From the NCBI GenBank assembly GCA_964291265.2, contig OZ219747.1, forward strand, positions 32,001 through 96,000: a DNA stretch of 64,000 nucleotides, read 5' to 3'. The stretch comes from Alphaproteobacteria bacterium (GTDB taxonomy: Bacteria > Pseudomonadota > Alphaproteobacteria > SP197). How positions within the stretch are numbered: the stretch's first letter is position 1; every line of letters starts with the position of its first letter. Below are positions 14,998-47,802 of the stretch, in pieces. A model generated the notes under the pieces. The model saw only the letters and a program-made list of their open reading frames with translations. It was not told the origin of the DNA and did no database searches. Both the position numbers and the translations under genes were made by a program.

Positions 14998-15152
14998 CCT
15001 TCACCCCGGGCAGCCTGACGGTGTGCAAACCCGCACACCTTTCGAGTATGGAGCATGCACCTGAGCGCCTTCAGGCAGATTGATGATGCGTTGATCGGGC
15101 AATTTAGTGGACATGAGCTTTCGCGCTGCGCTTGGTTTGCGGTTCTTGAAGG

Positions 15153-16016
15153 CTACTTGGAAGGGAAGGCTGGTGTTCGTGCCTTGAGGACGTCGTTCCA
15201 GTCTTTGTGTCCGTCTGGGGGTCTCATGCGGAGAGCTCTTGGGTCTTGGCTGACGAGGCGCTCGGCGGCCTGTTCTCCGACGGGATCGGCGTCGAAGGCG
15301 ACGAGGATGCGCTTTGGCGTCCAGGCTTCGGCCCATGTTGGGAGACGGTAAGCGATGCCGGCGGTTGACAGGATCACGGTAGCGGATTGCCGACATTCCT
15401 TGAGGCACCATGCGGAGAGGGCGTCGATGGCGCTTTCGGTGATGATGATGGTGCGTGGCATGGAGCGGTCCACGGGGATCCAGAAGCTGCCGGCGGCCTT
15501 GCGTGATCCTCGCGCCATGGCTCTGTACTGCTTTCCGTCTGCGTTGGGGACGGTACCGACGATCTCGGCGCCGGAGAGGTCTCTTTGTGCGTTGGTGCAT
15601 GTGAAGACGGCGTTTCTGCGTTCGTCGGCGGCGACGAGGCCGTGCTGTCGGCAAGCGTCCAGGCAACGGTCTGGCAGGCGGCGGTCATGGGCGAGGTAGT
15701 GGCGTACGGCGTGCCAGGTTTCCTCGCAGTGCGTTGGTGTTCTCGGCCCCTTGCCGCCGGAGCGTGCGGTGAGGAGTGCGACGGCGTCGTTGAAGCTGCA
15801 GCGGTGTGCATGCATGACGAGATCGATGGCGCCGCCACCGCCGGACTGGGTGATGTGGTCGAACCAGCGTTGTCGGTTGACGCTGATGACGGATCCGTGG
15901 CGCTTGAAGCGTCGCGGGTCGCGCGGGTCTCTTCGGTAGCCGAGCCGCAGGGCGAGTGGTTCGAGGGGCTGGTTGCGGATGTCATCGAGATGCTGATTGT
16001 CCCAGGACCGGATCAT
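15153..16016 (-). CDS. DUF3991/Toprim primase-like protein
   Basis: WFDH...GGGGAIDLVMH N-terminal module; IITESAIDALS, LSTAG, AFDADPVGE, KDWNDVL Toprim motifs. Confidence 0.8.
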   Translation of the reverse strand: MIRSWDNQHLDDIRNQPLEPLALRLGYRRDPRDPRRFKRHGSVISVNRQRWFDHITQSGGGGAIDLVMHAHRCSFNDAVALLTARSGGKGPRTPTHCEETWHAVRHYLAHDRRLPDRCLDACRQHGLVAADERRNAVFTCTNAQRDLSGAEIVGTVPNADGKQYRAMARGSRKAAGSFWIPVDRSMPRTIIITESAIDALSAWCLKECRQSATVILSTAGIAYRLPTWAEAWTPKRILVAFDADPVGEQAAERLVSQDPRALRMRPPDGHKDWNDVLKARTPAFPSK

Positions 16017-16051
16017 GGTCTGTCGAGCCTCCTGCGTGGTGGACGGGGGGT

Positions 16052-16116
16052 GGTTCCCGTTGGCGGTTCCCACCTGAACTCCCAGGGTGAACGGGAACCG
16101 GGAACCGGGAACCGCC
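16052..16116. repeat. Inverted iteron-like array: 2x GGTTCCC facing 3x tandem GGGAACC
   Basis: GGTTCCC at 16052 and 16065; GGGAACC at 16093, 16100 and 16107; lies between the helicase-like and primase-like genes. Confidence 0.85.
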
Positions 16117-16150
16117 TGGCGTCGGGGCGTTTTGCGCCTGGTTGTTGCGG

Positions 16151-17098
16151 TCAGGCTTTGGCGACGCGATAGGCACCGGGACCGTCCTGTGCGACACGTC
16201 CTTCCTGGACGAGCTTGGCTAGAAGCGTGGCGACGGTCGTGTTCCGTGTTGGGACGCGGTCCCGGACCTGGCGCAGCGAGAGCGGGGCATCGGCGTCGGC
16301 GAGGACCTGGACGATGCGCTGTTCGGGGGTTGGCGGCTGCGGCCTGGCGCCGTCGGGTTCCTGTTGCCGCAGCTGCAGGGCGGCTCCGTTGCCGCTGTCG
16401 GTGAGTTCGATGTCGAGATCGGCGAGTCCGGGTGCGGCGCGGTGTTCGACGGTCATGAGGATGGTTTCGTGGCGGCGCCGCAGGTAGAGGTTGCTGTCGC
16501 CCCATGCGTGCAGCTCGCTGCTTCCGCGCAAGGCCTGTCCGGGCCGGCTGGCGGCGCTCTTGCGTGCGTGGTGGACGAGCAGCACGGCGGCGCCGGAGTG
16601 TCGCTGCACGTCGCGCAGGAAGCCGAGGATCGGCGCGATCTCGGCGACGGCGTTTTCATCGACGCCGTGCAGGCGGACGAGGGGGTCGAGGATGAGCAGG
16701 CGGGAGCCGTGACGCTCGACGGTCTCGAGCAGGCTCTGGCGGTCGGTTGGGTGGTCGAGGCGCAGTGCGGGGACGTCGATGACGGCGATGTCGAGGGTGT
16801 CGAAGTCGGCGCCGGCTGCGGCGGCGATGCCCTGGAGGCGGCGTCGCACGATGTGGCCGGCGTCCTCGGCGGCGAACATGAGCACCGGTCCGGGGTGCAC
16901 GGCCGGGAAGCGGCGCAGACAGGGGACGCCGGCGGCGACGGCGACGGCGAGATCGAGGGCGAGGAAGGACTTTCCGCACTTGGGTTCGCCGCCGATGATG
17001 CCGACGGCCTCGCGGCCCCACAGGCTGTCGACGAGCCACTGCCCCTCGGTTGGCCGGTCCTCGAGTTCGGCCGGGCTGCGGGTTGGCAGGCCGATCAT
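16151..17098 (-). CDS. RecA-fold AAA_25 (RepA/helicase-like) ATPase with probable C-terminal HTH
   Basis: WLVDSLW, GGEPKCGKS Walker A, AAED, LLILDP Walker B, LLVHHARK, ALRGSSELHAW. Confidence 0.85.
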   Translation of the reverse strand: MIGLPTRSPAELEDRPTEGQWLVDSLWGREAVGIIGGEPKCGKSFLALDLAVAVAAGVPCLRRFPAVHPGPVLMFAAEDAGHIVRRRLQGIAAAAGADFDTLDIAVIDVPALRLDHPTDRQSLLETVERHGSRLLILDPLVRLHGVDENAVAEIAPILGFLRDVQRHSGAAVLLVHHARKSAASRPGQALRGSSELHAWGDSNLYLRRRHETILMTVEHRAAPGLADLDIELTDSGNGAALQLRQQEPDGARPQPPTPEQRIVQVLADADAPLSLRQVRDRVPTRNTTVATLLAKLVQEGRVAQDGPGAYRVAKA

Positions 17099-17925
17099 CG
17101 TGTGCGCCTCGGCGGGATGGGTTCGCCCCAGGTTTCGAGGAAGAGCTTTTCGTCGAGCACCTCGCGGTCGGTGTCGAGGGCGACAGCGAGGAGGTTGTCG
17201 GCGAGGATGGTCAGGGAGCGCGGATTGCCGTCTGCATGGACGACGAGGGTCTCCTTGAGGCCGGGGGTCATGAGGCCTGGATTGCCGGCGGCGTCGAGCA
17301 GGTGGTCGAGCAGGCGGAGCAGTTCGTCGGGTTCGCAGCGCGTCATGACGAGGCGTTGACGGACCCGCGAGGCGACGGCTTGCAGGTCGGGGCTGTGCAG
17401 CTTGGCGAGCAGGCGGCTGTCGCCGGCCAGGACGACGCTGAGGATGGCGCGCGAGTCGAACTCCGTGGAGGCGAGCAGGCGCAGTTCGGTGAGCACGGCC
17501 TGCGGCATCTCCTGGGCCTCGTCGACGAGCAGGACCGGGCGCATGCGGGTGTCCTCGAGATGGGTGAGCCAGCACTCGCGCAAGGCCTTGAAGCCGGCCC
17601 AGAGGTTCCGGCGCAGGGTCGTGATGCCGAAGAGGTCGGTCATCTCGCGGTAGAAGTCTGCGGTGCTCGACGAGGGATGGGCGAGCACGGCGACGTCGAG
17701 GCCCTCCGCGGTCTCGAGACGCTCGTCGAGCAGGCGCAGGGCGACGCTCTTGCCGGTGCCATGCTCGCCGGCCACCACGGCGAAGCCGCCCTGGCGCACG
17801 AGCTGACGCTCGATCCTGCGGCAGAAGCTGTCGATCGCGGGCGTTGCGAGAAGGCCCTCGACCGGCAGGTCGGCGGCGAAGGGGTTCCACTTGAGGCCGT
17901 AATGGGTGAGGTGTTGGCGGTTCAT
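17095..17925 (-). CDS. ExeA-like AAA ATPase (transposition helper)
   Basis: YGLKWNPF, GEHGTGKS, LLVDEAQEM, VVLAGD, GNPRSL; overlaps transposase stop. Confidence 0.85.
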   Translation of the reverse strand: MNRQHLTHYGLKWNPFAADLPVEGLLATPAIDSFCRRIERQLVRQGGFAVVAGEHGTGKSVALRLLDERLETAEGLDVAVLAHPSSSTADFYREMTDLFGITTLRRNLWAGFKALRECWLTHLEDTRMRPVLLVDEAQEMPQAVLTELRLLASTEFDSRAILSVVLAGDSRLLAKLHSPDLQAVASRVRQRLVMTRCEPDELLRLLDHLLDAAGNPGLMTPGLKETLVVHADGNPRSLTILADNLLAVALDTDREVLDEKLFLETWGEPIPPRRTR

Positions 17926-19439
17926 GACATGTCTCCCTGATCGTTGTTGTCCTTGCCTTCGTCGTTCGGGCCGGCCTCCTTGCCGAAGGGCAACCATGCC
18001 GGGGGCAGGCCGGTGGCGTCCTGCTCGTCGCGGAGGCGCTTGAGCAGCGGCGCCGGCCCGGTCTGTGGCTTCACCTCGTCGTCTTCTCTCCGGCGCCCGG
18101 TCCGGCGGCGGAGCCCCTCGGCGTTGCGAGACTTGTCCACCGGACGCAGGGTCGAGATGCGGTCCCCGGTGCGGCCGTCGACCATGTCGATGCCGGAGAG
18201 GTCCCAGCGGGCGACGCGCAGGTCGATCTCGCGCAGGTGGCGCCACGGCGCCGGCAGTTGATAGCGGACACTCGCCACCGTCACCGTGGCGTCGGAGCGT
18301 CGCACCTTGCGACGCACCTTGATGCGGAAGGCGGCCCGGAGTTCGCTGCTGTCCGGGCATGTCCGCGAGGCGTCCTCGCTGTCGATCACGCGCCTGAGCG
18401 GCGTGACCCCCGTCTCGCGGTGTACGCGGCGGTGATACTCGCGCTCGAACCAGATGACGGTGGCGTCGTTCAGGTCCTGCAGGGTCAGGGTCTCGACGTT
18501 CTCGAGCATCGCCATCAGGCGGCCCTCGACCTGGGCGAACAGCACCTCCTGCTTGCCGTTCTGGTACGGGCTGCGGACAAGCGTGTGGTGGTGCAGCACG
18601 CCGAGGGCGTGCAGTCCCTCCTGCACCTCCCCGGCCGTCATCGCCGATCCGTTGTCGGTCAGAAGGGACCGCGGCAGCCCTCGCTTCATGAAGGCCTGGC
18701 TGATGCCGTGAACGAAGATCTCCGTGGTCTCCCCGAGATACCACTGCATGTGGCAGACGAGACGCGAATGGTCGTCGATGAAGCTGAGCAGGATCGGCGT
18801 CCTCCACTCCCCGGACGGCGTCAGCACGCGACAGGTCCGCGCATGGTGGAAGTCGGCGTGCCACAGGGCATGGCTGCGCGAGACCTCGTAGCTCAGCACC
18901 TCGCGCCCCTCGACCGCAGGCCGCTCCGCTTCACCACCGAACTTCCGCTGCCGCCGCCGCCGCTCCAGGCCCGCCGAACGCATGACCCGGGTCAGCGTCG
19001 CATAGGACGGCATCGGCCCGAGCGAAGGGTCGGCCTCGACCAGCGCGCAAAGGTTGTCGTGGTGGAGCTGAACCGACCACGTGGGGTGCGCCCTGTACTG
19101 GTCGCGCAAGGCCGCCATCAGCAGGGGCGAGACGCTCCGCGCACGACCGGCGTCGCAGCGCACCCGACGGCGCAGCGCCCGCACCGGATCCCGGTCGGCC
19201 GACCGCGCCTTGTAGTACCAGCGCTCGATCGTCGACACCGAGAACCGGATCGTGCCGCCCCTGACGGGATGCTCCCAGTCCCGCCGCGACAGCCGTTGAA
19301 GCTCGGCCCGCAGACCCCCCTTCGGCGGCGGCGACGCCAGCAGCGGGCCAACCACCGCAAAGCGCAGCCGCGTCCAGGCGTCCCCGGCGTCCGCTTCGTC
19401 CTTCGTCACCACGACAGCCTTCCTCCCTCGTCGTCCCAT
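17922..19439 (-). CDS. DDE transposase (rve core with Mu-like C-terminus)
   Basis: LWHADFHH, IDDHSR, LLTDNGSAM, SPYQNGKQE, YHRRVHRETGVTP, RKVRRSDATVTV. Confidence 0.9.
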   Translation of the reverse strand: MGRRGRKAVVVTKDEADAGDAWTRLRFAVVGPLLASPPPKGGLRAELQRLSRRDWEHPVRGGTIRFSVSTIERWYYKARSADRDPVRALRRRVRCDAGRARSVSPLLMAALRDQYRAHPTWSVQLHHDNLCALVEADPSLGPMPSYATLTRVMRSAGLERRRRQRKFGGEAERPAVEGREVLSYEVSRSHALWHADFHHARTCRVLTPSGEWRTPILLSFIDDHSRLVCHMQWYLGETTEIFVHGISQAFMKRGLPRSLLTDNGSAMTAGEVQEGLHALGVLHHHTLVRSPYQNGKQEVLFAQVEGRLMAMLENVETLTLQDLNDATVIWFEREYHRRVHRETGVTPLRRVIDSEDASRTCPDSSELRAAFRIKVRRKVRRSDATVTVASVRYQLPAPWRHLREIDLRVARWDLSGIDMVDGRTGDRISTLRPVDKSRNAEGLRRRTGRRREDDEVKPQTGPAPLLKRLRDEQDATGLPPAWLPFGKEAGPNDEGKDNNDQGDMS

Positions 19440-19461
19440 GGGAGGAAGGCCCTATACGGTC

Positions 19462-20076
19462 CTATGTCATCGCACTACAGGCACTCTCTGCGGGCGGCGA
19501 CAGACCATCGACGATCCTGCAGAAGCCGGTCCACGGCATGAGCCAGACCAGGCTCCGCAGAAGGCGCGATCGAAACGATCCGCCGCGCATCAAGCGCACC
19601 AGGGCCACAAGCGGAGGCTCGTCCGCCTCCACCGCCAGATCGCCACGTTTCCAGCGCCACGCCGCCGTCGCCGGGAACCTCTCCCGCCACCATCGACGCC
19701 ACCGGCCAAGCGTCCTCTCCGGGATGCCAGACATGCGGCTCGCCTTCGCCAGGGGAACACTGCCGCACAGAACCAGGAGGCTCGCAGCCAGGTATACCGG
19801 CGCCGCACGGAACCTCCGGCCGAAGAAGCGCACCGAGGGCGGAGTCGTCCGGCTCCTGCACTCAGCACAGCAGAAGCTGAAACGGCGGTTGTCGCCGCGA
19901 AGAGCAGGCGCAAGCGCGTGCGGCTTGCGCGGATACCGCGCGCTGTGAAGACGACCGCCGCAATGCGGGCATCCCTCCAGGCGGCAGCGCTCCGCCTCGG
20001 CCGCATCAATCCTCTCAAGGAGAGGCCAGACATGAGCGCAGGAAAGTATGGGACCCGGGAAGGAAACGTGCGACAT
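19462..20076 (-). CDS. Zn-ribbon/HTH transposon accessory protein (DUF6431-like)
   Basis: GCPHCGGRLHSARYPRKP, RFSFCCAECRSRTTPPSVRF, GIPERTLGRWRRWWRE; directly upstream of transposase. Confidence 0.7.
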   Translation of the reverse strand: MSHVSFPGPILSCAHVWPLLERIDAAEAERCRLEGCPHCGGRLHSARYPRKPHALAPALRGDNRRFSFCCAECRSRTTPPSVRFFGRRFRAAPVYLAASLLVLCGSVPLAKASRMSGIPERTLGRWRRWWRERFPATAAWRWKRGDLAVEADEPPLVALVRLMRGGSFRSRLLRSLVWLMPWTGFCRIVDGLSPPAESACSAMT

Positions 20077-20113
20077 TGACTGGCCTCCGGTGATCTCACC
20101 GTCACGGAGACAA

Positions 20114-20150
20114 GCCCCTCGGCCGACTTCTTGCAAGTCGGTCGAGGGGC
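20114..20150. other. Strong 16-bp-stem hairpin upstream of element A first gene
   Basis: GCCCCTCGGCCGACTT-cttgc-AAGTCGGTCGAGGGGC, 15/16 complementary. Confidence 0.7.
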
Positions 20151-20286
20151 AATCACCCCAGACCAGCAGACAATTCAAGCAAAACCGACGGAATCCACGT
20201 CAAAAATCGCGCAAACGCTTAGCACCCTATACCCCTGGCCTGCCATGGCTCCATGGCGCAGGACGAATCACCTGGAGAGGAATGCA

Positions 20287-21579: not shown

Positions 21580-23246
21580 GGGTGTGAGTCTAGTATGGCA
21601 GTTATGTTATGGTCTTAAGTTATGGACTTAGTTCCATTGTTTCATCTCATGCGGCCAGCGCCGGGGTGTGATGTGGGCTGATGTTGTCGTTGGCTGGTGC
21701 GTTGTCGCCCTCGATCATGGCGGTCCACGCGCTTTCGAAGCGGCCGGATTTGATGAGGGCGCGGAAGGTGAGAACGGCTTGTCCGCCGACGATGCGCCAG
21801 CGCATGCCGGAGCGCTTCATGCGCTGTGTGACGAGGGTCTTGTTGGCTGCCTCGACAAGTCCCGAGCCGATGGCGATCCCCTGTTGCTTCAGTGCGTGGT
21901 AGCGCATGCGGTGGCGATGCTTGCGGAAGAAGGCCAGTTCCCTGTCGATGTCGGCTCGGCCCGCCGGCTTGGCGGTGTCGCGAAGGTGGCGCAGCGCCCG
22001 GATCACCCTGTCGATGCCGCAGGGGTCGTGACGCAGGATCTCGCGGTACTTCTCGAACCAGTGGGGCGCCGCTGCATGGTCGGCCACCACGCGCAGATGC
22101 TCGCAGGCATGCCAGAAGTCGATCACCTCGGTTTCGGGTTCAAGACCAGAGAGGAAGGTCCAGTTGTCGGCGGCGGCGGCGGCGATGGCGCTGATCCTGA
22201 TCTCGGGACGCTCACGCCTGATATGCGCGACCTCGCTTGCCAGCTGCGCCTTCAGCGTGCACTTGCCGCGCTCGGGCATGCGGCCGAGATAGACGGTCTT
22301 CAGGCGCTCACCGTCGGCGTCGTGGAAGGAGACTGTGCCACAGGCCGCCTCGCGCCAGCAGGCCTCGCTACGGCCGTCCTCGCCGGCCCGCAGCGCCACC
22401 ATGACGCCGTCGAGCGAGACCGAGGCGGTGACCGCGTCCTGCGGAATGTCCTCGGCTTCCCGGATGCCATCCAGGGCCTGCGGGCCGAGACCTTCCCAAC
22501 GCTCCTGCATGGTCAGGCTCAAGCGCTGCAAGGTGCTCACAGACGGCGTCATGGCGCCGAGCTTGCCGAAGAACGCCTCCGCTTCCCGCGCCGTGCAGTG
22601 GACCATCATCATCAGCCCAAGCTGAGCCGCCGGCCGTGTCAGGTAGTCGTCGACGAGGCCCAGGCTTTCGTCCACCGGCATCAGCGACCGGCGGTGCCCG
22701 CCGGTGCGGTAGCGCGCACGCCGAAAGGTCACCGGGCCGAGCGAGGTCATGATCGTCTTCGGCGTCGGCGCCACACGGAACCAGTTCTGCCCGTCCCGCT
22801 CGATCCGGGGCGCACCGTCGTCCCGGGCCTCGGCACAGGCACCCAGGATCTCGCAGCCAAGCGCGTGCACGCTCTCAAGCACCCGCCGCTCCGCTTCCTC
22901 GAAGGCCTCGGCAGAGCGCTCTGAACCGAGCTGCCGATGACACACCGCGGTCACTTGCGTGACCGCTTCGACAACCCGAGGCGGCAAGCCGGAAAGATCG
23001 ATGGACGCGGAAGGCCGAAGCTGTGACACTGACATGGGAGCGCTCCTGATGTTGTGGGTTGAAGCCAGCATCATATCGCATCTTGCGGTGCGGAGCGTTC
23101 CCGCATCCACCGCCAAGCCCTGCTGTCGTGACAAAATCCGGTCCTGAAACGGGCAATTGTCACGAAACCCCGTTTTCGCCGCTCCATCGCGACCGCACAA
23201 CCGTGATAAATCAATGACTTGGCTTCGCCATACGAGAACTACACCC
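21580..23246 (-). mobile_element. ISKra4/ISLre2-like insertion sequence, 1667 bp
   Basis: TIRs GGGTGTGAGTCTAGTATGGC / GGGTGTAGTTCTCGTATGGC; 8-bp TSD TCACGGCG at 21572-21579 and 23247-23254. Confidence 0.9.
21647..23035 (-). CDS. ISKra4-like DDE transposase
   Basis: VSLDGVMV, IDFWHACEHL, IGSGLVEAANK, QRMKRSGMRW motifs. Confidence 0.9.
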   Translation of the reverse strand: MSVSQLRPSASIDLSGLPPRVVEAVTQVTAVCHRQLGSERSAEAFEEAERRVLESVHALGCEILGACAEARDDGAPRIERDGQNWFRVAPTPKTIMTSLGPVTFRRARYRTGGHRRSLMPVDESLGLVDDYLTRPAAQLGLMMMVHCTAREAEAFFGKLGAMTPSVSTLQRLSLTMQERWEGLGPQALDGIREAEDIPQDAVTASVSLDGVMVALRAGEDGRSEACWREAACGTVSFHDADGERLKTVYLGRMPERGKCTLKAQLASEVAHIRRERPEIRISAIAAAAADNWTFLSGLEPETEVIDFWHACEHLRVVADHAAAPHWFEKYREILRHDPCGIDRVIRALRHLRDTAKPAGRADIDRELAFFRKHRHRMRYHALKQQGIAIGSGLVEAANKTLVTQRMKRSGMRWRIVGGQAVLTFRALIKSGRFESAWTAMIEGDNAPANDNISPHHTPALAA

Positions 23247-23726
23247 TCACGGCGGCTGAGTCCGGGGTCGCGCTCCGCAAGGCCTTCGATCAGGTCAGTC
23301 GCTGCCTGACCCTGTCTCTTGTCACCCTGAACCAGGACCTTGGTAACAGGCCCGATCACTCGCACGCACAGGCGGCAACGGCCTCATCCACCCGCCAAGG
23401 CTGACGTCTGTCCGACGGGAATCCGCGACACTGGTCGACGCGAATGCGGTCTGCCACATGATGCGGCCGCGGTCCGACCCGCAGGTCGCCGCCTTCAGCG
23501 CAACTCCGGCATACGCGATTCGCCCGTATTCGCCAGGATCCGCTCAAGCCTCATGGAACGCCCGCCAGTCAGGCGCCTCGCACGACAAGGCCGCCGGCGG
23601 CAGACACAGGCCGCCGCCCGTCAGCTGCAGGGCCGCATCCCGCGGTTCGTCGAAAGCACCCCATGGCCTCGATCATGAACGAGATCGTGTGATCAGTCTG
23701 TTGGCAGATGCTCAGAGGGACCGGAA

Positions 23727-42663: not shown

Positions 42664-42731
42664 TGTTGATGGCTGCATAGAACGGCGGGATTTCGGCGAT
42701 TTGCCGCGCTTTGTCAGGGTCGTGTTTCTTC

Positions 42732-42824
42732 CCTGTTGTCAGGTCCTATTGTCACGTCCTGTTGTCGTGGTTTGAGTGTTCGGCTGGTTGTCTCCCCGAG
42801 CGCCGCCGTCTTTTCCTATTGTCG
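42732..42824 (+). repeat. CCTRTTGTC subterminal repeats, three at 13-bp spacing plus a fourth
   Basis: CCTGTTGTCA 42732, CCTATTGTCA 42745, CCTGTTGTCG 42758, CCTATTGTCG 42815. Confidence 0.85.
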
Positions 42825-43087
42825 TTTTGGTCCGGTTCGGGTTCCGTCGACCTCTGCTTCGGTCTTGGTGACGGTTGCCGGGAGGGTTCCGGTTCCGAGG
42901 CACTCGCGGGATCGTCTGTCTTCCCTGTGGGCGGGTCGCGTTGTCCGGTCCCGGGGCGGCGTCTTTGCCGCCGCCCCGGGTGGATGCTAGATCGGCATCA
43001 AGAGAAAGAGCGATGCGATGCCGGGCGGAGTTGTGACGCCCCCCGGCGCAGCACCCGGACGAGCCGGTCACGGGGGACCGAACTCCC

Positions 43088-43618
43088 GTGTATTGTCGAG
43101 CCATTTTGCGTCCGGGTCCACCCCCGCTCTCGAGACGGACGGTGTGCACGACAGGACGACTGTTCAACTGCAGGCGGTGTCAGCGGCAGGTTGTTCTCTG
43201 CCGGTCGTGTGACCGGGGGCATGTGTATTGCTCCAAGGAGTGCAGGGAGCGGTCCCGGATCGAGCGGCGCCGCGCGTCGCGTCGTCGCTACCAGAGCACG
43301 CTGAAGGGCCGTGAGACGGGCCGTCACCGCCAGCGGCGTTACCGGCTCCGCAAGGCGGAGGAGGCGCGTGCGTTGAAGGCCAGGGCGGCGATGCTTGCCG
43401 AGATCATGGGCACGCAGACGTCTGCTGTGGTGCTGCTTGGCGACGTTCCGGCGGTGTCTGGAGACGCCGGTTCTGAAGAAATCGTTACGGACCACCCTTC
43501 CCGACTGCTGCCGACCTCCCTACCTGCGGTTGTGAAGGCGCAAGAGCGACGCGAATCGCCGCTTCGGTGCGCCAGATGCGGACGGGTCGTGACGCATGTG
43601 GTGCTGAGGGACCCGTGA
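43088..43618 (+). CDS. Cys-rich (Zn-finger) basic protein upstream of istA
   Basis: CRRCQRQVVLCRSCDRGHVYCSKEC...RRRYQST...RQRRYR...CARCGR; start uncertain. Confidence 0.65.
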   Translation: MYCRAILRPGPPPLSRRTVCTTGRLFNCRRCQRQVVLCRSCDRGHVYCSKECRERSRIERRRASRRRYQSTLKGRETGRHRQRRYRLRKAEEARALKARAAMLAEIMGTQTSAVVLLGDVPAVSGDAGSEEIVTDHPSRLLPTSLPAVVKAQERRESPLRCARCGRVVTHVVLRDP

Positions 43619-43650
43619 TGCGGCGTTGAGGAACCAAAGGGAGGGAGTTC

Positions 43651-45144
43651 ATGGCGATCGACGAGGACACGCGGGCGACGATCGTGCGGCTGTCGCGGGC
43701 CGAGGGCTGGGCTGTGGGGACGATTGCCCGGCATCTCGGCGTGCACCACGGCACGGTGACGCGGGCGCTCAAGGCGTCGGGGCAGGAGCGGCGGCCGCGG
43801 GCCAAGCTCATCGACCCCTTCGTTGCCTTCCTCGGGGAGCGTCTTGAGGCGTCGCCGGACCTTCCGGCCAGCACGCTCTGGCGACAGGTCGTGGCTCTGG
43901 GCTACCGCGGCGGCGAGGATCACTTCCGTCACGACCTGCGCCGCCTTGGGCTGAGGCCGGTGAAGAGGCCCGAGCCGTCGCTGCGGCTGAGCTTCCTTCC
44001 GGGCGAGCAGGCGCAGGTTGACTGGGCCGAGTTCGGGAAGGTCCGCATCGGCCGGGCGGAGCGCAGGCTCATGGGGCTTCTCGTCACCCTCAGCTACTCG
44101 CGCCAGACTGTCCTGAGCCTGTTCCACGACGCGCGGATGGCCAGCTTCCTGCAAGGCCATGTCGAGGCTTTCGCGGCATTCGGGGGTGTGCCGCGGAGGC
44201 TTCTGTACGACAACCTGAAGAGTGCCGTGGTGACGCGCCGCGGCAAGGCGGTCACCTATCATCCGATGCTGCTCGGCCTCGCGGCCCACTATGCCTTCGA
44301 ACCGAGCGCCGCCTGGCCCAGGAGCCCGCAGGAGAAGGGCCGCGTGGAACGCCGTGTGCGCTTCGCGCGCACCGGGTTCTTCGCCGGGCACGACATCACG
44401 GTCCCGCTCGGCGAGCTCAACGCCGCGGTTCGGGAGTGGTGCTTCGGCGCCGCCGCGGAGCGGCCCTGGCCGGACGACGACAGTCTCCTGGTGCGGGACG
44501 CCTTCGCCCGGGAGAGGGAGCACCTGATCGTCCTTCCCGCCGATCCCTTCCCGCATCACGAGGTCCGCCCGGTGCGCATCGACAAGACCTGCCACGCCCG
44601 CTTCGACACCAACGACTACAGCGTTCCGGGTAGCTTCTCCAAGGCCCTGCTGACGCTGGTCGCCGACCGCGACGAGGTCCGCATCCTCGACGGCGCCGAC
44701 GAGGTCGCGCGCCACCGACGCTCCTACGACAGGAAGCAGGCCGTCACCGATCCGGAGCATGCCAGGGCGATCGCCGCGGGCAAGCGGCGGGCCCGCTCCA
44801 TGAGCGTCCGCGACCGGGTCCTGCGCACCGTGCCGCGGGCCGAGGAGATGCTGGCGCGCGCCGGGACCAACGGGCGCAACGTGGCCTCCTGCGCCCGGAT
44901 GCTGGAGACGCTTCTCAACGCGCACGGCGCCGACGCTCTCGACCGGGCTGTCGCCACGGCGCTGGAGCGCGGCTCGTGCCACCCCGAAACCGTGCGCGTC
45001 ATCATCGAGGAGCGCCGCCGGGAGCAGGGCCTGCCGCCCCTCAGCATCGCCGACGACGGCCGCGGCGGCCGTGGCACGACGCCGCGGGGGACCGCTCTCG
45101 ACGCCTACGACAGGCCCGAAGCCAGCGCCAGGAACAAGACATGA
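43651..45144 (+). CDS. istA: IS21 family transposase IstA
   Basis: IARHLGVHHGTVTR, PGEQAQVDWAEF, FGGVPRRLLYDNLKSAV, EKGRVERRV; GGGAG RBS. Confidence 0.95.
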   Translation: MAIDEDTRATIVRLSRAEGWAVGTIARHLGVHHGTVTRALKASGQERRPRAKLIDPFVAFLGERLEASPDLPASTLWRQVVALGYRGGEDHFRHDLRRLGLRPVKRPEPSLRLSFLPGEQAQVDWAEFGKVRIGRAERRLMGLLVTLSYSRQTVLSLFHDARMASFLQGHVEAFAAFGGVPRRLLYDNLKSAVVTRRGKAVTYHPMLLGLAAHYAFEPSAAWPRSPQEKGRVERRVRFARTGFFAGHDITVPLGELNAAVREWCFGAAAERPWPDDDSLLVRDAFAREREHLIVLPADPFPHHEVRPVRIDKTCHARFDTNDYSVPGSFSKALLTLVADRDEVRILDGADEVARHRRSYDRKQAVTDPEHARAIAAGKRRARSMSVRDRVLRTVPRAEEMLARAGTNGRNVASCARMLETLLNAHGADALDRAVATALERGSCHPETVRVIIEERRREQGLPPLSIADDGRGGRGTTPRGTALDAYDRPEASARNKT

Positions 45145-45842
45145 GCGAGCTCAGGGAGCGTGCCCGGGCGCTCGGCCTCCACGGGCTCGTCGAACGCTGG
45201 GACGAGGTCGCCGGGACCGCATGGATCGAGGAGGTGGTCAGCGGCGAGGAACAGGCCCGCAGGGCCCGCAGCCACGAGCGCCGCCGCGCCGCGGCGCGGC
45301 TGCCCGCCTTCAAGCCCCTGGCGGACTTCGACTGGACATGGCCGCGCGACATCAGCCGGGCTCATGTCGAAGCGCTCCTCGGCCTCGGCTTCGTCGACCG
45401 TGCGGACAACGCCGTGCTCGTCGGCGGGCAGGGCACCGGAAAGACCATGATCGCCGCCAACGTGGCGCACCAGGCCCTGCTGCACGGCCACACCGTCCGC
45501 TTCGAGAAGGCGCCGGAACTGCTCGAGGCACTCGCCGAGACCGTCTCGCGCAGCGAGCTGCGCCGCCGCCTCGCGATCCTCGCCAGGCCCCGCCTGCTCA
45601 TCCTCGACGAAATCGGCTACGTGACCCTCGAAAGCCACCATGCCGACATCCTCTACGCCATCGTCTCGCGGCGCTATCAGCGCCGCTCGACCATGGTCAC
45701 GACAAGCCTCGCCTTCGCCCAGTGGGACCGCGTCTTCCCCAGCGCCTCCGGCATCGCCGGCACCGTCGACCGGCTCATGCACGACGCAACCCTCATCTCC
45801 ATCGACAGCGACTCCTGGCGGCTCAGGCGTGAAACCCGATAA
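45141..45842 (+). CDS. istB: IS21 helper ATPase IstB
   Basis: LADFDWTWP, GGQGTGKT, LLILDEIGY, VDRLMH, SWR. Confidence 0.93.
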   Translation: MSELRERARALGLHGLVERWDEVAGTAWIEEVVSGEEQARRARSHERRRAAARLPAFKPLADFDWTWPRDISRAHVEALLGLGFVDRADNAVLVGGQGTGKTMIAANVAHQALLHGHTVRFEKAPELLEALAETVSRSELRRRLAILARPRLLILDEIGYVTLESHHADILYAIVSRRYQRRSTMVTTSLAFAQWDRVFPSASGIAGTVDRLMHDATLISIDSDSWRLRRETR

Positions 45843-46722
45843 ACCCCGCCGCGTCGACTTCGACGCCGTCAAGCGCATGCCGTTCGAACGCATCGCCGCC
45901 GACTGGGGATACGTCCGCGACGAACAGGCCTCGACACGCGCCAACCCCGTCCTGTGCGCACCCGGCCTGCCGAAGCTCGTCACGAAGTGCCTCAACAACG
46001 GACACTGGGTCTACTTCAACACCCAGAACGATGAAGACAACGGAACCGTCATCGACTTCATGCTCAACCGCGGACTGGCCTTCGCCGACATCTGCACCCG
46101 CTTCGCAGCACCCGACGCCGCGCCACGCGACTTCCGCAGCCTCTGGGCCGCGGCAACGCCCGATGCGGCCCCGGACTGGCTCACCGGGCGCGGCATCCTC
46201 CCGGAGACCCTCGACACCTGCCGCCCCCTGGTCCGCCGCGACCACAACGGACGCGTCCTCTTCGCCCATCGCAACAGGAAGCGAAAGCTCACCGGCTTCG
46301 AGATCGGTCCCCCCGACGGACCGAAACGCTTCGCCACCGGTGGAACCCGAAGCCTGTTCGCCGTCCGCGCCGGAACCGCCGCGGACCTCGAGGCCCTCGT
46401 CATCACCGAAAGCGCCGTCGACGCCCTCAGCCTGGCCCAGATCGACCAATGTCCCCCCAGCCACGCCTTCCTCTCCACCGCCGGGGCACCCTCGCGAAGA
46501 CAGCACGAACAGATCAGCCTCGCCGCAAGCAGCCTGCCCAACGTCAGGACCATCGTCCTCGCCCAGGACCACGACGAGGCCGGAGAGCGACAGGCCGAAA
46601 CCCTGCGCAAAAAGATGAAGCTCCCCTCCCACGTCTCGTTCCACAGACGCAGACCGCCGGAAAACGCCGACTGGAACGACGTCGTCAACGCCAGGACCAA
46701 AGAACCACAAGCGAGATCATGA
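45829..46722 (+). CDS. DUF3991/Toprim primase-like protein
   Basis: GHWVYFN...DNGTVIDF; WLTGRGI; LVITESAVDALS, LSTAG, AQDHDEAGE, ADWNDVV. Confidence 0.82.
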   Translation: MKPDKPRRVDFDAVKRMPFERIAADWGYVRDEQASTRANPVLCAPGLPKLVTKCLNNGHWVYFNTQNDEDNGTVIDFMLNRGLAFADICTRFAAPDAAPRDFRSLWAAATPDAAPDWLTGRGILPETLDTCRPLVRRDHNGRVLFAHRNRKRKLTGFEIGPPDGPKRFATGGTRSLFAVRAGTAADLEALVITESAVDALSLAQIDQCPPSHAFLSTAGAPSRRQHEQISLAASSLPNVRTIVLAQDHDEAGERQAETLRKKMKLPSHVSFHRRRPPENADWNDVVNARTKEPQARS

Positions 46723-47039
46723 CCACGTCCGTCACAAGGAGACCACTCATGCCCCTCACGCCCGCCGAAAAGCAGCGGCGATACCGGGAACGGCGCAAGG
46801 CCGGCATCCCTCCCGTCCACACCCCAAAGCACCGTGACCGGCGCTCGCGACCGCAACGCTGGAACGACGCCGTGGCCGAACTGCGCGCCCTGCAGGACGA
46901 ATGGCGTGACCACCTCGACAGCATCCCCGAAAGCCTCCGTGACACGCCTTACGGAGAACGCCTGCAGAGCGTCGCCGATGCCGACATCGAGGCCCTCGAG
47001 GACATCGAACCGCCACGCGGCTACGGAAGGGATACGTGA
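46719..47039 (+). CDS. Small hypothetical protein
   Basis: MPLTPAEKQRRYRERRK...RSRPQRWNDAVAELRALQDEW...PPRGYGRD; ATGA overlap with primase stop. Confidence 0.7.
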   Translation: MTTSVTRRPLMPLTPAEKQRRYRERRKAGIPPVHTPKHRDRRSRPQRWNDAVAELRALQDEWRDHLDSIPESLRDTPYGERLQSVADADIEALEDIEPPRGYGRDT

Positions 47040-47144
47040 TCCCGCAAGACCCTTGAACGCGGTCACGCGTTACCATCCAGGAATGAGAACGTCTCACCCC
47101 GACGCGCTTCTCAGCCTCCCCGGGAAACCCCCGGGCCGTCCAAA

Positions 47145-47480
47145 CGACACCGCATCACGAGACTGCCGCAGCCTCTGAGCCGCAGAAACGCCCGATCCGC
47201 CGCCGGGCTGGCTCACAGGTCGCAGCATCCGCCCGAAAACACTCAACGCCTGCCGCACCCTGCGCCGCCGCAACCGCAACGCACACAGCCTCTTCGCCCA
47301 GCGCAACAGAAACCGTAAGCTCTCCAGCCTCAAGATCGTCCCGCCCGACGAACCACGACGAGGCCGGAAAACGCCAGAACGAGACCACGCGCAAAGATTC
47401 TGAAGCTCCCCTCCCACATCACATTCCACAAACGCCGAACGCCAGAAAACGCCGACTGGAACGACATCGTCAACGTCAAT
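47145..47480 (+). pseudogene. Internally deleted degenerate duplicate of the element B primase gene
   Basis: Aligns by eye to ~46113-46322 joined to ~46567-46692; contains TGG>TGA stop. Confidence 0.85.
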
Positions 47481-47802
47481 GCAAGACCAATGGGATCCAA
47501 CAATAGGCAGAAAACAAAGACCGGGCGGACCTTCGTCCAATGCCGCACGTTCTCCTACCGTGGTCACCCACTCACACGATCAGCGCCCAAAAGAGCGGTT
47601 CTCCGCCAATATCCCGCCGTTCTAAATCGCCGCCGACAGCTGATCGAAGCATCCCGGCTTCGCCGGCCCCATCCGGCCCTTCCGTCCCGAGGGGCACGGG
47701 GAATCTCGTGCCGGCTGCTTCCCGTGTGGGGATGCGCGGTCCGGCCTCACCACATCCCTTGACCGTCGAGGCCCGGGTGAGATGCCTCCCCGGTACCGGA
47801 AG

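Follow-up and report, generated by a model that had tools for sequence, protein, structure and literature searches.

Why should a compact bacterial transposon carry helicase-like and primase-like genes of its own? This question is raised by a locus, termed element A, within a 64,000-nucleotide stretch (i.e. the window) of an Alphaproteobacteria genome (GCA_964291265.2, contig OZ219747.1, positions 32,001 to 96,000). A first-pass annotation, made from the letters alone, had placed at 15081..20224 a ~5 kb unit of five open reading frames (ORFs) with an origin-like site, and had proposed that its replication-type genes either process the strand-transfer intermediate or replicate an excised circle. 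Comparisons of sequence indicate that element A is a variant of the TnsBC/Tn6049-type transposons with an undescribed, swappable module of predicted replication genes, which may help to replicate its strand-transfer intermediate.

Element A is well bounded and recently active

Six copies of element A (99.4-99.9% identity), together with fragments, were present in the genome and two of the six were interrupted by another insertion sequence (IS). The copies were 1-29 substitutions apart with zero gaps, and had ends equivalent to 15062 and 20221 in all cases. Each was flanked by a 5-bp duplication (6/6; i.e. GCACC, GACGG, GATGG, CCGCG, ACAGG and ACGTC), and these duplications had no sequence in common. 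An empty site, consisting of a joint with five shared letters, was detected in public contigs of runs X2 and X3 (runs X1-X3 come from one study, X1 being the possible source run). As the six copies and the empty site define the ends, the helicase and primase genes lie inside element A, removing the concern that they fell outside a single mobile unit. The predicted size of ~5 kb was retained but the boundaries required correction, the annotated start being 19 bp inside the element and the annotated end 3 bp into the duplication. The boundary features are as follows:

15062..20221, minus strand: element A, whole TnsBC/Tn6049-type transposon (5,160 bp; six copies with identical boundaries, empty site in runs X2 and X3)
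15057..15061, plus strand: target-site duplication GCACC, low side (5 bp; the five letters common at the empty-site joint)
20222..20226, plus strand: target-site duplication GCACC, high side (5 bp)
15062..15112, plus strand: right end of element A, an imperfect inverted repeat with two TGATG/TAGTGG-type repeats ~24 bp apart

The TGATG/TAGTGG-type repeats of the right end are likely to be sites bound by the transposase, and TGATGG repeats of a similar kind also occur in the ends of sister elements. The termini are 5'-TAAGCG on the Zn-gene side and 5'-TGAGCG on the primase side.

Read depth in run X1 was ~53 on both flanks, 314 on element A (5.9-fold) and 359 at the primase end. These values match six copies plus one partial copy, indicating that there was no excess coverage. 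No end-to-end (i.e. abutted) joint of element A was listed in 4/4 runs, whose contigs drop rare forms, and none was found in the genome assembly for element A or for a second transposon of the window, element B. A free high-copy circle was rejected on these grounds, leaving the excised-circle branch of the first-pass proposal with no support. Matched duplications were observed for 6/6 copies of element A, 6/6 copies of a related element in genome G013 and, for element B, at least 26 copies out of 31. None of these copies gave signs of a cointegrate, an inversion or exchanged flanks. A replichore orientation bias was also discarded, as insertions of element A were five co-directional and two head-on (one near the terminus) and those of element B 15/18. 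Element A is a real, well-bounded and recently active transposon.

Gene organization and transposition core

Element A is filled by five ORFs, which are all on the minus strand and form the single co-oriented unit, in the order, originally described:

19462..20076, minus strand: Zn-ribbon and helix-turn-helix (HTH) protein (DUF6431-like), 204 amino acids (aa), conserved first gene
17922..19439, minus strand: TnsB/MuA-type DDE transposase, 505 aa
17095..17925, minus strand: TnsC/MuB-type AAA+ ATPase (ExeA-like; AAA_22/PF13401), 276 aa, overlapping the transposase stop and helicase start
16151..17098, minus strand: RSF1010-RepA-like (SF4) predicted helicase, AAA_25 plus C-terminal winged helix/HTH, 315 aa
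16052..16116, minus strand: inverted array, (GGTTCCC)x3, ~20-bp core, (GGGAACC)x2, in the gap between helicase and primase
15153..16016, minus strand: DUF3991/Toprim DnaG-type predicted primase, 287 aa, with a zinc-domain-like N-terminus lacking cysteines and no helicase-binding tail

The transposase, ATPase and helicase genes overlap by four bases at each junction and the primase gene starts 134 bp past the helicase stop. The transposase matched rve (PF00665) above the cut-off and D196, D262 and E298 were invariant. ShCAST TnsB was the best PDB match for a profile of 29 transposases (E 5e-17, positions 54-420); the IS481 model NF033577 gave 108.6 bits, below its cut-off of 224, and IS481 is a single ORF as compared to five here. 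By these measures, the transposase is nearer to TnsB than to IS3/IS481 types. A profile of 27 ATPase sequences matched ShTnsC and PDB entry 8xvb ('ATP-dependent target DNA activator B', which we take to be MuB; E 8e-7), with K59, D135, E136, R187 and R189 invariant. The Mu-type DDE core of the first-pass annotation is upheld by these best PDB matches.

No family match to TnsA, to a TniQ/TnsD selector or to a resolvase was obtained among the five ORFs of element A. The IstB-type family PF01695 was not matched by the element A ATPase but gave 172 bits for the element B ATPase. Element A combines a TnsB-type transposase and a downstream TnsC-type ATPase with two ends and a 5-bp duplication, and lacks TnsA/TniQ, as is characteristic of TnsBC elements; the TGT...ACA termini typical of these elements are absent, element A having 5'-TGA and 5'-TAA. 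It is neither of Tn5053 type (no recombinase ORF) nor Tn7-like (no TniQ/TnsD), and is not an IS21 or IS481 element. From its sequence relationships, the core of element A is that of a TnsB/TnsC-type (i.e. TnsBC) transposon related to Tn6049. The Zn-ribbon/HTH protein had no Pfam match over the cut-off but fell into Atlas clusters at 0.97, in two of which DUF6431 occurs on 32-44% of members; C39, C69, C70 and C73 were invariant in 26 sequences.

A helicase and an inverted array form a conserved unit

The annotated AAA_25 ATPase with a probable HTH was supported by a PF13481 match of 125 bits and by matches of the C-terminus to Z-alpha winged helices. RSF1010 RepA (1g8y; E 3e-13) was the only PDB sequence match; the two aligned at Walker A, catalytic Glu, Walker B, H3 and H4, and K43, E78, D138, H177 and R191 were invariant in 25 homologues. 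A single-sequence structural model was poor (pLDDT 50) and recovered the RecA fold only. The motif set of an SF4 RepA-type helicase is intact and unwinding activity is predicted. In a random sample of the class, the helicase was detected (E<=1e-30) in 1/400 other genomes. A single-sequence search found no close relatives in viruses and an alignment search gave two distant ones. Ratios of non-synonymous to synonymous substitution (dN/dS), estimated by simple counting in GC-rich genes, were 0.31, 0.35, 0.26 and 0.34 for transposase, ATPase, helicase and primase, respectively, against sister locus L030; more distant partners gave 0.41-0.54 for the helicase and, in one case, 0.69 for the primase. 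These ratios indicate that the helicase and primase are under purifying selection like the transposase.

The array was identical (0 differences) in the six copies of element A. It was present in 61/72 non-redundant helicase loci (drawn from 102) as compared to 1/27 related loci without a helicase and 4/3600 shuffled-sequence controls, indicating that the array is not due to chance and that helicase and array are a conserved unit. The consensus consists of TTCC units, a 20-bp unpaired core (CTA(C/T)A or CTAG in 45/61) and GGAA units. A reading of the array as a terminator or known RNA was rejected, as no terminator was found there, there was no Rfam match and the folding z was -1.5. The array is likely to be a cis site of the helicase. 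Thus the inverted array reported by the first-pass annotation was verified; its designation as an iteron array or origin rests on analogy, as the core is GC-rich (35% A+T).

Searches of viral contigs with the exact array pattern gave two matches, both without a helicase. In three phage-like contigs (L200, L210 and L211), an inverted array comes after a distantly related helicase, with a primase alongside; the TTCC detector scored only L211, the arrays of L200 and L210 being read by eye. The same hexamer repeats occur at L117:1600-1750, on an actinobacterial-plasmid-like contig, beside a presumably FtsK/TraB-like gene and with no helicase. The winged helix (16151-16340) was 54% identical to that of L030 (core 90%) and 70% identical to that of L032 (core 82%). 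The array, too, is of the L032 type. These patterns suggest that the helicase tail and array were probably exchanged together by recombination. One sub-lineage (L052, L055, L059, L065, L067, L073, L075, L077, L130 and L135) shares a second non-coding stretch, apparently palindromic, which is located after the array and before the right end and is absent from element A; it translates as AQRRSRMA / LTAASTMA and had no Rfam match in eight loci.

In the primase, E194, D198, D242, D244 and D272 were invariant in 44/44 sequences. A structural model (pLDDT 91) had Aquifex DnaG and the T7 gp4 primase as best folds and aligned over 342 columns to 2au3, a zinc-plus-polymerase-domain structure. No conserved Cys/His set corresponding to CHC2 zinc ligands was found in the N-terminal domain (44 sequences). 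The Toprim acidic residues and the modelled RNA-polymerase-domain fold point to a DnaG-type primase, for which priming activity is predicted. Among plasmid proteins, it is closest to the C-terminal domains of MobV relaxase fusions (36%).

Contents of the fourth gene position in related elements

A metagenome search by helicase alone confirmed at least 588 stretches, of which the best 80 were kept; as all of these were at least 51% identical, counts from this set describe the near clade only. Among these best 80, the transposon ATPase adjoined the helicase in 72/73 loci with 200 nt upstream, a transposase was present in 49/49 loci with 1,200 nt upstream, and five loci were of IS21 type. Toprim, RepB' or CHC2 domains were found in 0/33 loci with 600 nt downstream. 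A reciprocal set of 80 transposase-selected loci was reduced to 42 by keeping those with an intact ATPase, 250 nt of downstream sequence and <95% identity. The position following the ATPase (i.e. slot four) held a helicase alone (21), helicase and Toprim (2), helicase and CHC2 (1), CHC2 (4), RepB' (3), a small acidic ORF alone (4) or none of these/other content (7), in counts from which short contigs may hide a second slot gene. A replication-type domain thus occupied the slot in 31/42 relatives (helicase, 24; CHC2 alone, 4; RepB', 3), and two unrelated primase folds occur there. The expectation of co-conservation with the transposase therefore held for helicase and array (72/73 and 61/72) but failed for the primase, which is optional and lineage-limited in these sets (2/42 and 0/33).

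Multi-copy ends placed the slot gene inside the element in G013 (4,354 bp; helicase), in G005 (~4.0 kb), where Toprim is the sole slot gene, and in L030/L031, which have the full set of five genes. By the same approach, a G004 element of 4,216 bp contains the helicase with a transposase of 26% identity. Slot contents were scattered over an unrooted quick tree of the ATPases. In a similar helicase tree, which gives no direction of transfer, helicases of three transposase families, including IS21, were interleaved, indicating that the helicase has moved among these families. Several small acidic slot proteins end in DDDLPF, IDEPF or MQEPF, resembling the SSB tail (DFDDGIPF in the host). Acidic-aromatic tails of SSB type bind PriA and primase.

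Small acidic slot-four proteins were encoded at L027:8252-8521, L028:8263-8475, L040:5053-5238, L071:3312-3551 and L081:3193-3405; none had a Pfam family and the one tried had no Atlas family. In L191, a similar-looking protein is encoded after the helicase. RepB' (AEP) primases follow the same transposon core in L095 (3182-4187), L107 and L100, two of them with a small acidic ORF between. From ~9550 onward in L109, a family member has inserted into or next to an array of CRISPR-like repeats, translated repeatedly as VSIPSNRGVPSD.

Proposed role of the module and alternative explanations

A TnsB-type enzyme without TnsA cuts 3' ends only (PMC11406308; 10.64898/2026.05.30.728999). TnsA-less elements form a Shapiro intermediate, replication of which gives a cointegrate that is resolved by a resolvase or host recombination (PMC11406308), and the Mu intermediate is handled by host ClpX, IF2, PriA and DnaB/DnaC (10.64898/2026.05.30.728999). 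We give an even chance to a role for the helicase and array, with the primase as an optional addition, in replicating the strand-transfer intermediate. The helicase would load at the adjacent inverted array and unwind element DNA, and the two target 3' ends would be extended by host polymerase across the predicted intermediate. The primase, when present, would act as a helper by priming the element's own DNA and, as there is no resolvase, the cointegrate would be resolved through host homologous recombination. Since strand transfer already leaves two target 3'-OH primers, the step that limits the process may be unwinding; this would account for the predominance of helicase-only versions and for the accessory status of the primase. 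The mechanism is in keeping with the linkage of helicase and array, with a primase that is optional and with the convergence of slot contents. A broader proposal, to which somewhat less than even confidence is attached, is that these elements are a widespread and undescribed class of self-replicating bacterial transposons with a swappable replication hand-off slot behind the ATPase. The slot contents would be a helicase together with a dedicated loading site, a primase of one or the other fold, or a protein mimicking the SSB tail; they would start replication of the element's own intermediate without host PriA, and would be traded as a module among TnsBC and IS21 families.

Several observations weigh against such a role. 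The slot position is where Tn7-like elements keep target selectors. The host genome has priA and dnaG, and the idea of a host without restart genes was rejected. Matched duplications and the lack of any rearranged copy are explained equally well by simple insertion, the duplications being compatible with this as well as with cointegrates that were later resolved. Similarity of the arrays tracks the helicase core (r 0.73) as well as the winged helix (r 0.69), so that binding by the winged helix is not singled out; co-evolution of winged helix and array was set aside, with a partial r of 0.28 as compared to 0.40 for the core and with kinship and linkage as confounders. With nothing but a small ORF in the slot, Tn6049 attained 12 copies (PMC2864759), and 7/42 relatives lack any of these slot genes, indicating that the kit is not essential to the family. 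IS21, also a carrier of the module, is listed among circle-forming families (10.1101/2023.06.07.543989).

The best-surviving alternative, which we nevertheless consider unlikely, is a target selector or activator: the slot protein would sense forks or single-stranded DNA and recruit the TnsC-like ATPase, as TnsE/TniQ do in Tn7, with replication folds reused as sensors. The slot gene overlaps the ATPase stop codon and occupies the selector position, modular selectors are documented for Tn7 (PMC10293859), and neither a CHC2 finger alone (4/42) nor a 60-90-aa acidic protein can be a replication enzyme. However, helicase and primase keep full catalytic motif sets, a pure selector would not be expected to have a conserved cis array next to the helicase gene, and neither the orientations of elements A and B nor the target duplications show any preference. 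Slightly less probable again is a copy-out route, in which helicase, array and primase act as a mini-replicon that makes or amplifies a circular copy, which then inserts. Simple insertion would account for the matched duplications of all copies, and the module resembles a phage replication unit and has IS21-type associations (the helicase in five loci, Toprim in element B). Against this, the 5.9-fold depth in X1 matches six copies, end-to-end joints are lacking in 4/4 runs (subject to the loss of rare variants from contigs) and in the assembly, and the transposase is closer to TnsB than to IS3/IS481 types.

A role in spread between cells is improbable. Here the primase would make transferred single strands duplex and the kit would aid establishment after plasmid or phage entry, as might be suggested by the MobV relaxase fusions carrying the nearest plasmid relatives of the primase (36%) and by RepB' of sister elements, which belongs to a primase family also of conjugative plasmids and has a role in RSF1010; yet no relaxase or transfer gene is among the five ORFs of element A and the primase is an optional part. 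Neutral cargo, i.e. replication genes acquired a single time from a phage or plasmid and retained as passengers, would suit a slot of variable and sometimes empty content but is very improbable given the purifying selection, the near-exclusive transposon context, the conserved array and the fact that unrelated replication genes have been recruited more than once to the same position.

Neighbouring elements

Element B (42664-47638, plus strand) is an IS21-type element encoding a Zn-rich ORF, IstA, IstB, a related Toprim primase (33%) and a ~100-aa ORF. It has ~31 unit-length copies, mostly of 5,320 bp and with 5-bp duplications; the window copy is ~345 bp shorter than most. Two of the six element A copies are interrupted by element B, which also forms nested or tandem clusters at G000:C2 4058043-4072207 and 4237410-4258495. 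One 21-kb cluster span has the same 5-bp sequence on both sides, as a composite unit would. Another multi-copy IS, with a weak UPF0236 match and ~15 genome matches, lies at ~21580-23365 (minus strand) of the window.

Comparison with known systems

No description of a transposon with a helicase/array/primase architecture was found in the literature searched; ISfinder, TnCentral and subscription papers, which lay outside this search, may name the element. Likewise, no literature on DUF3991 together with a transposase was found, and nothing related for DUF6431. The first-pass annotation linked this architecture to no named IS/Tn family; the core has a named relative in Tn6049. How the intermediate is handed to replication in TnsA-less transposons, and how they cope without a resolvase, are stated as open questions for CRISPR-associated transposons (CAST) of type V-K (PMC11406308). 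A compact element encoding likely hand-off factors makes this step testable by single deletions, and in this genome a recently active copy has all five genes intact and precisely defined ends. A bypass of PriA by the module, if real, would account for the spread of the family over several phyla and might make TnsB-based integration tools more effective in foreign hosts.

In Tn6049 (Cupriavidus metallidurans CH34; plasmid pHS87a), the genes for the Zn protein, the transposase and the 'gspA' ATPase are arranged as in element A (46, 49 and 53% identity; pMOL30 and pHS87a copies), and the two also share short imperfect TG-type ends with TGATGG repeats (end sequence from PMC4739549) and many dispersed copies. 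Tn6049 differs in its size of 3.5 kb, in having an acidic ORF of 90 aa as the fourth gene and no helicase, array or primase, and in a reported 4-bp duplication on pHS87a as compared to 5 bp for element A. The available text of PMC2864759 describes 12 copies and the 'gspA' ATPase and gives no mechanism. Tn6048, a first guess as relative, was dropped as it is a different 10.4-kb element (PMC11952213; PMC4914505).

The phage modules of L200, L210 and L211 resemble element A in that an AAA_25 helicase neighbours a primase and has directly behind it an inverted array centred on CCCT..AGGG, but the helicases are only 24-34% identical and the context is that of a phage (Sak4, SSB, RusA, head protease). 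The TTCC detector found no array in four other phage or plasmid helicase relatives. IncQ replicons combine a RepC initiator with long direct iterons. The IncQ plasmid RSF1010 encodes the RepA nearest to the element A helicase, and sister elements carry a primase of its RepB' family; element A differs in lacking a RepC ORF and long direct repeats, in the added winged helix and short inverted array, in its DnaG-type primase and in being embedded in a transposon. The IEE PrimPol-helicase similarly brings primase and helicase activities to transposition intermediates but is an AEP/DEAD-type protein, is encoded outside the IS and promotes excision (10.1101/2023.06.07.543989). According to PMC10293859, no target selector has been reported for IS21; the available text of that source makes no mention of a primase.

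Element A shares with TnsBC elements, Mu and type V-K CAST a TnsB-type transposase, a TnsC/MuB-type ATPase, the lack of TnsA and a 5-bp duplication (10.1101/2024.11.13.623437; PMC11406308), and type V-K CAST is likewise without a resolvase. In the available text of these two sources, no element-encoded replicative helicase, cis array or primase is described for any of the three. Mu uses host PriA/DnaB, whereas element A encodes helicase-like and primase-like genes of its own.

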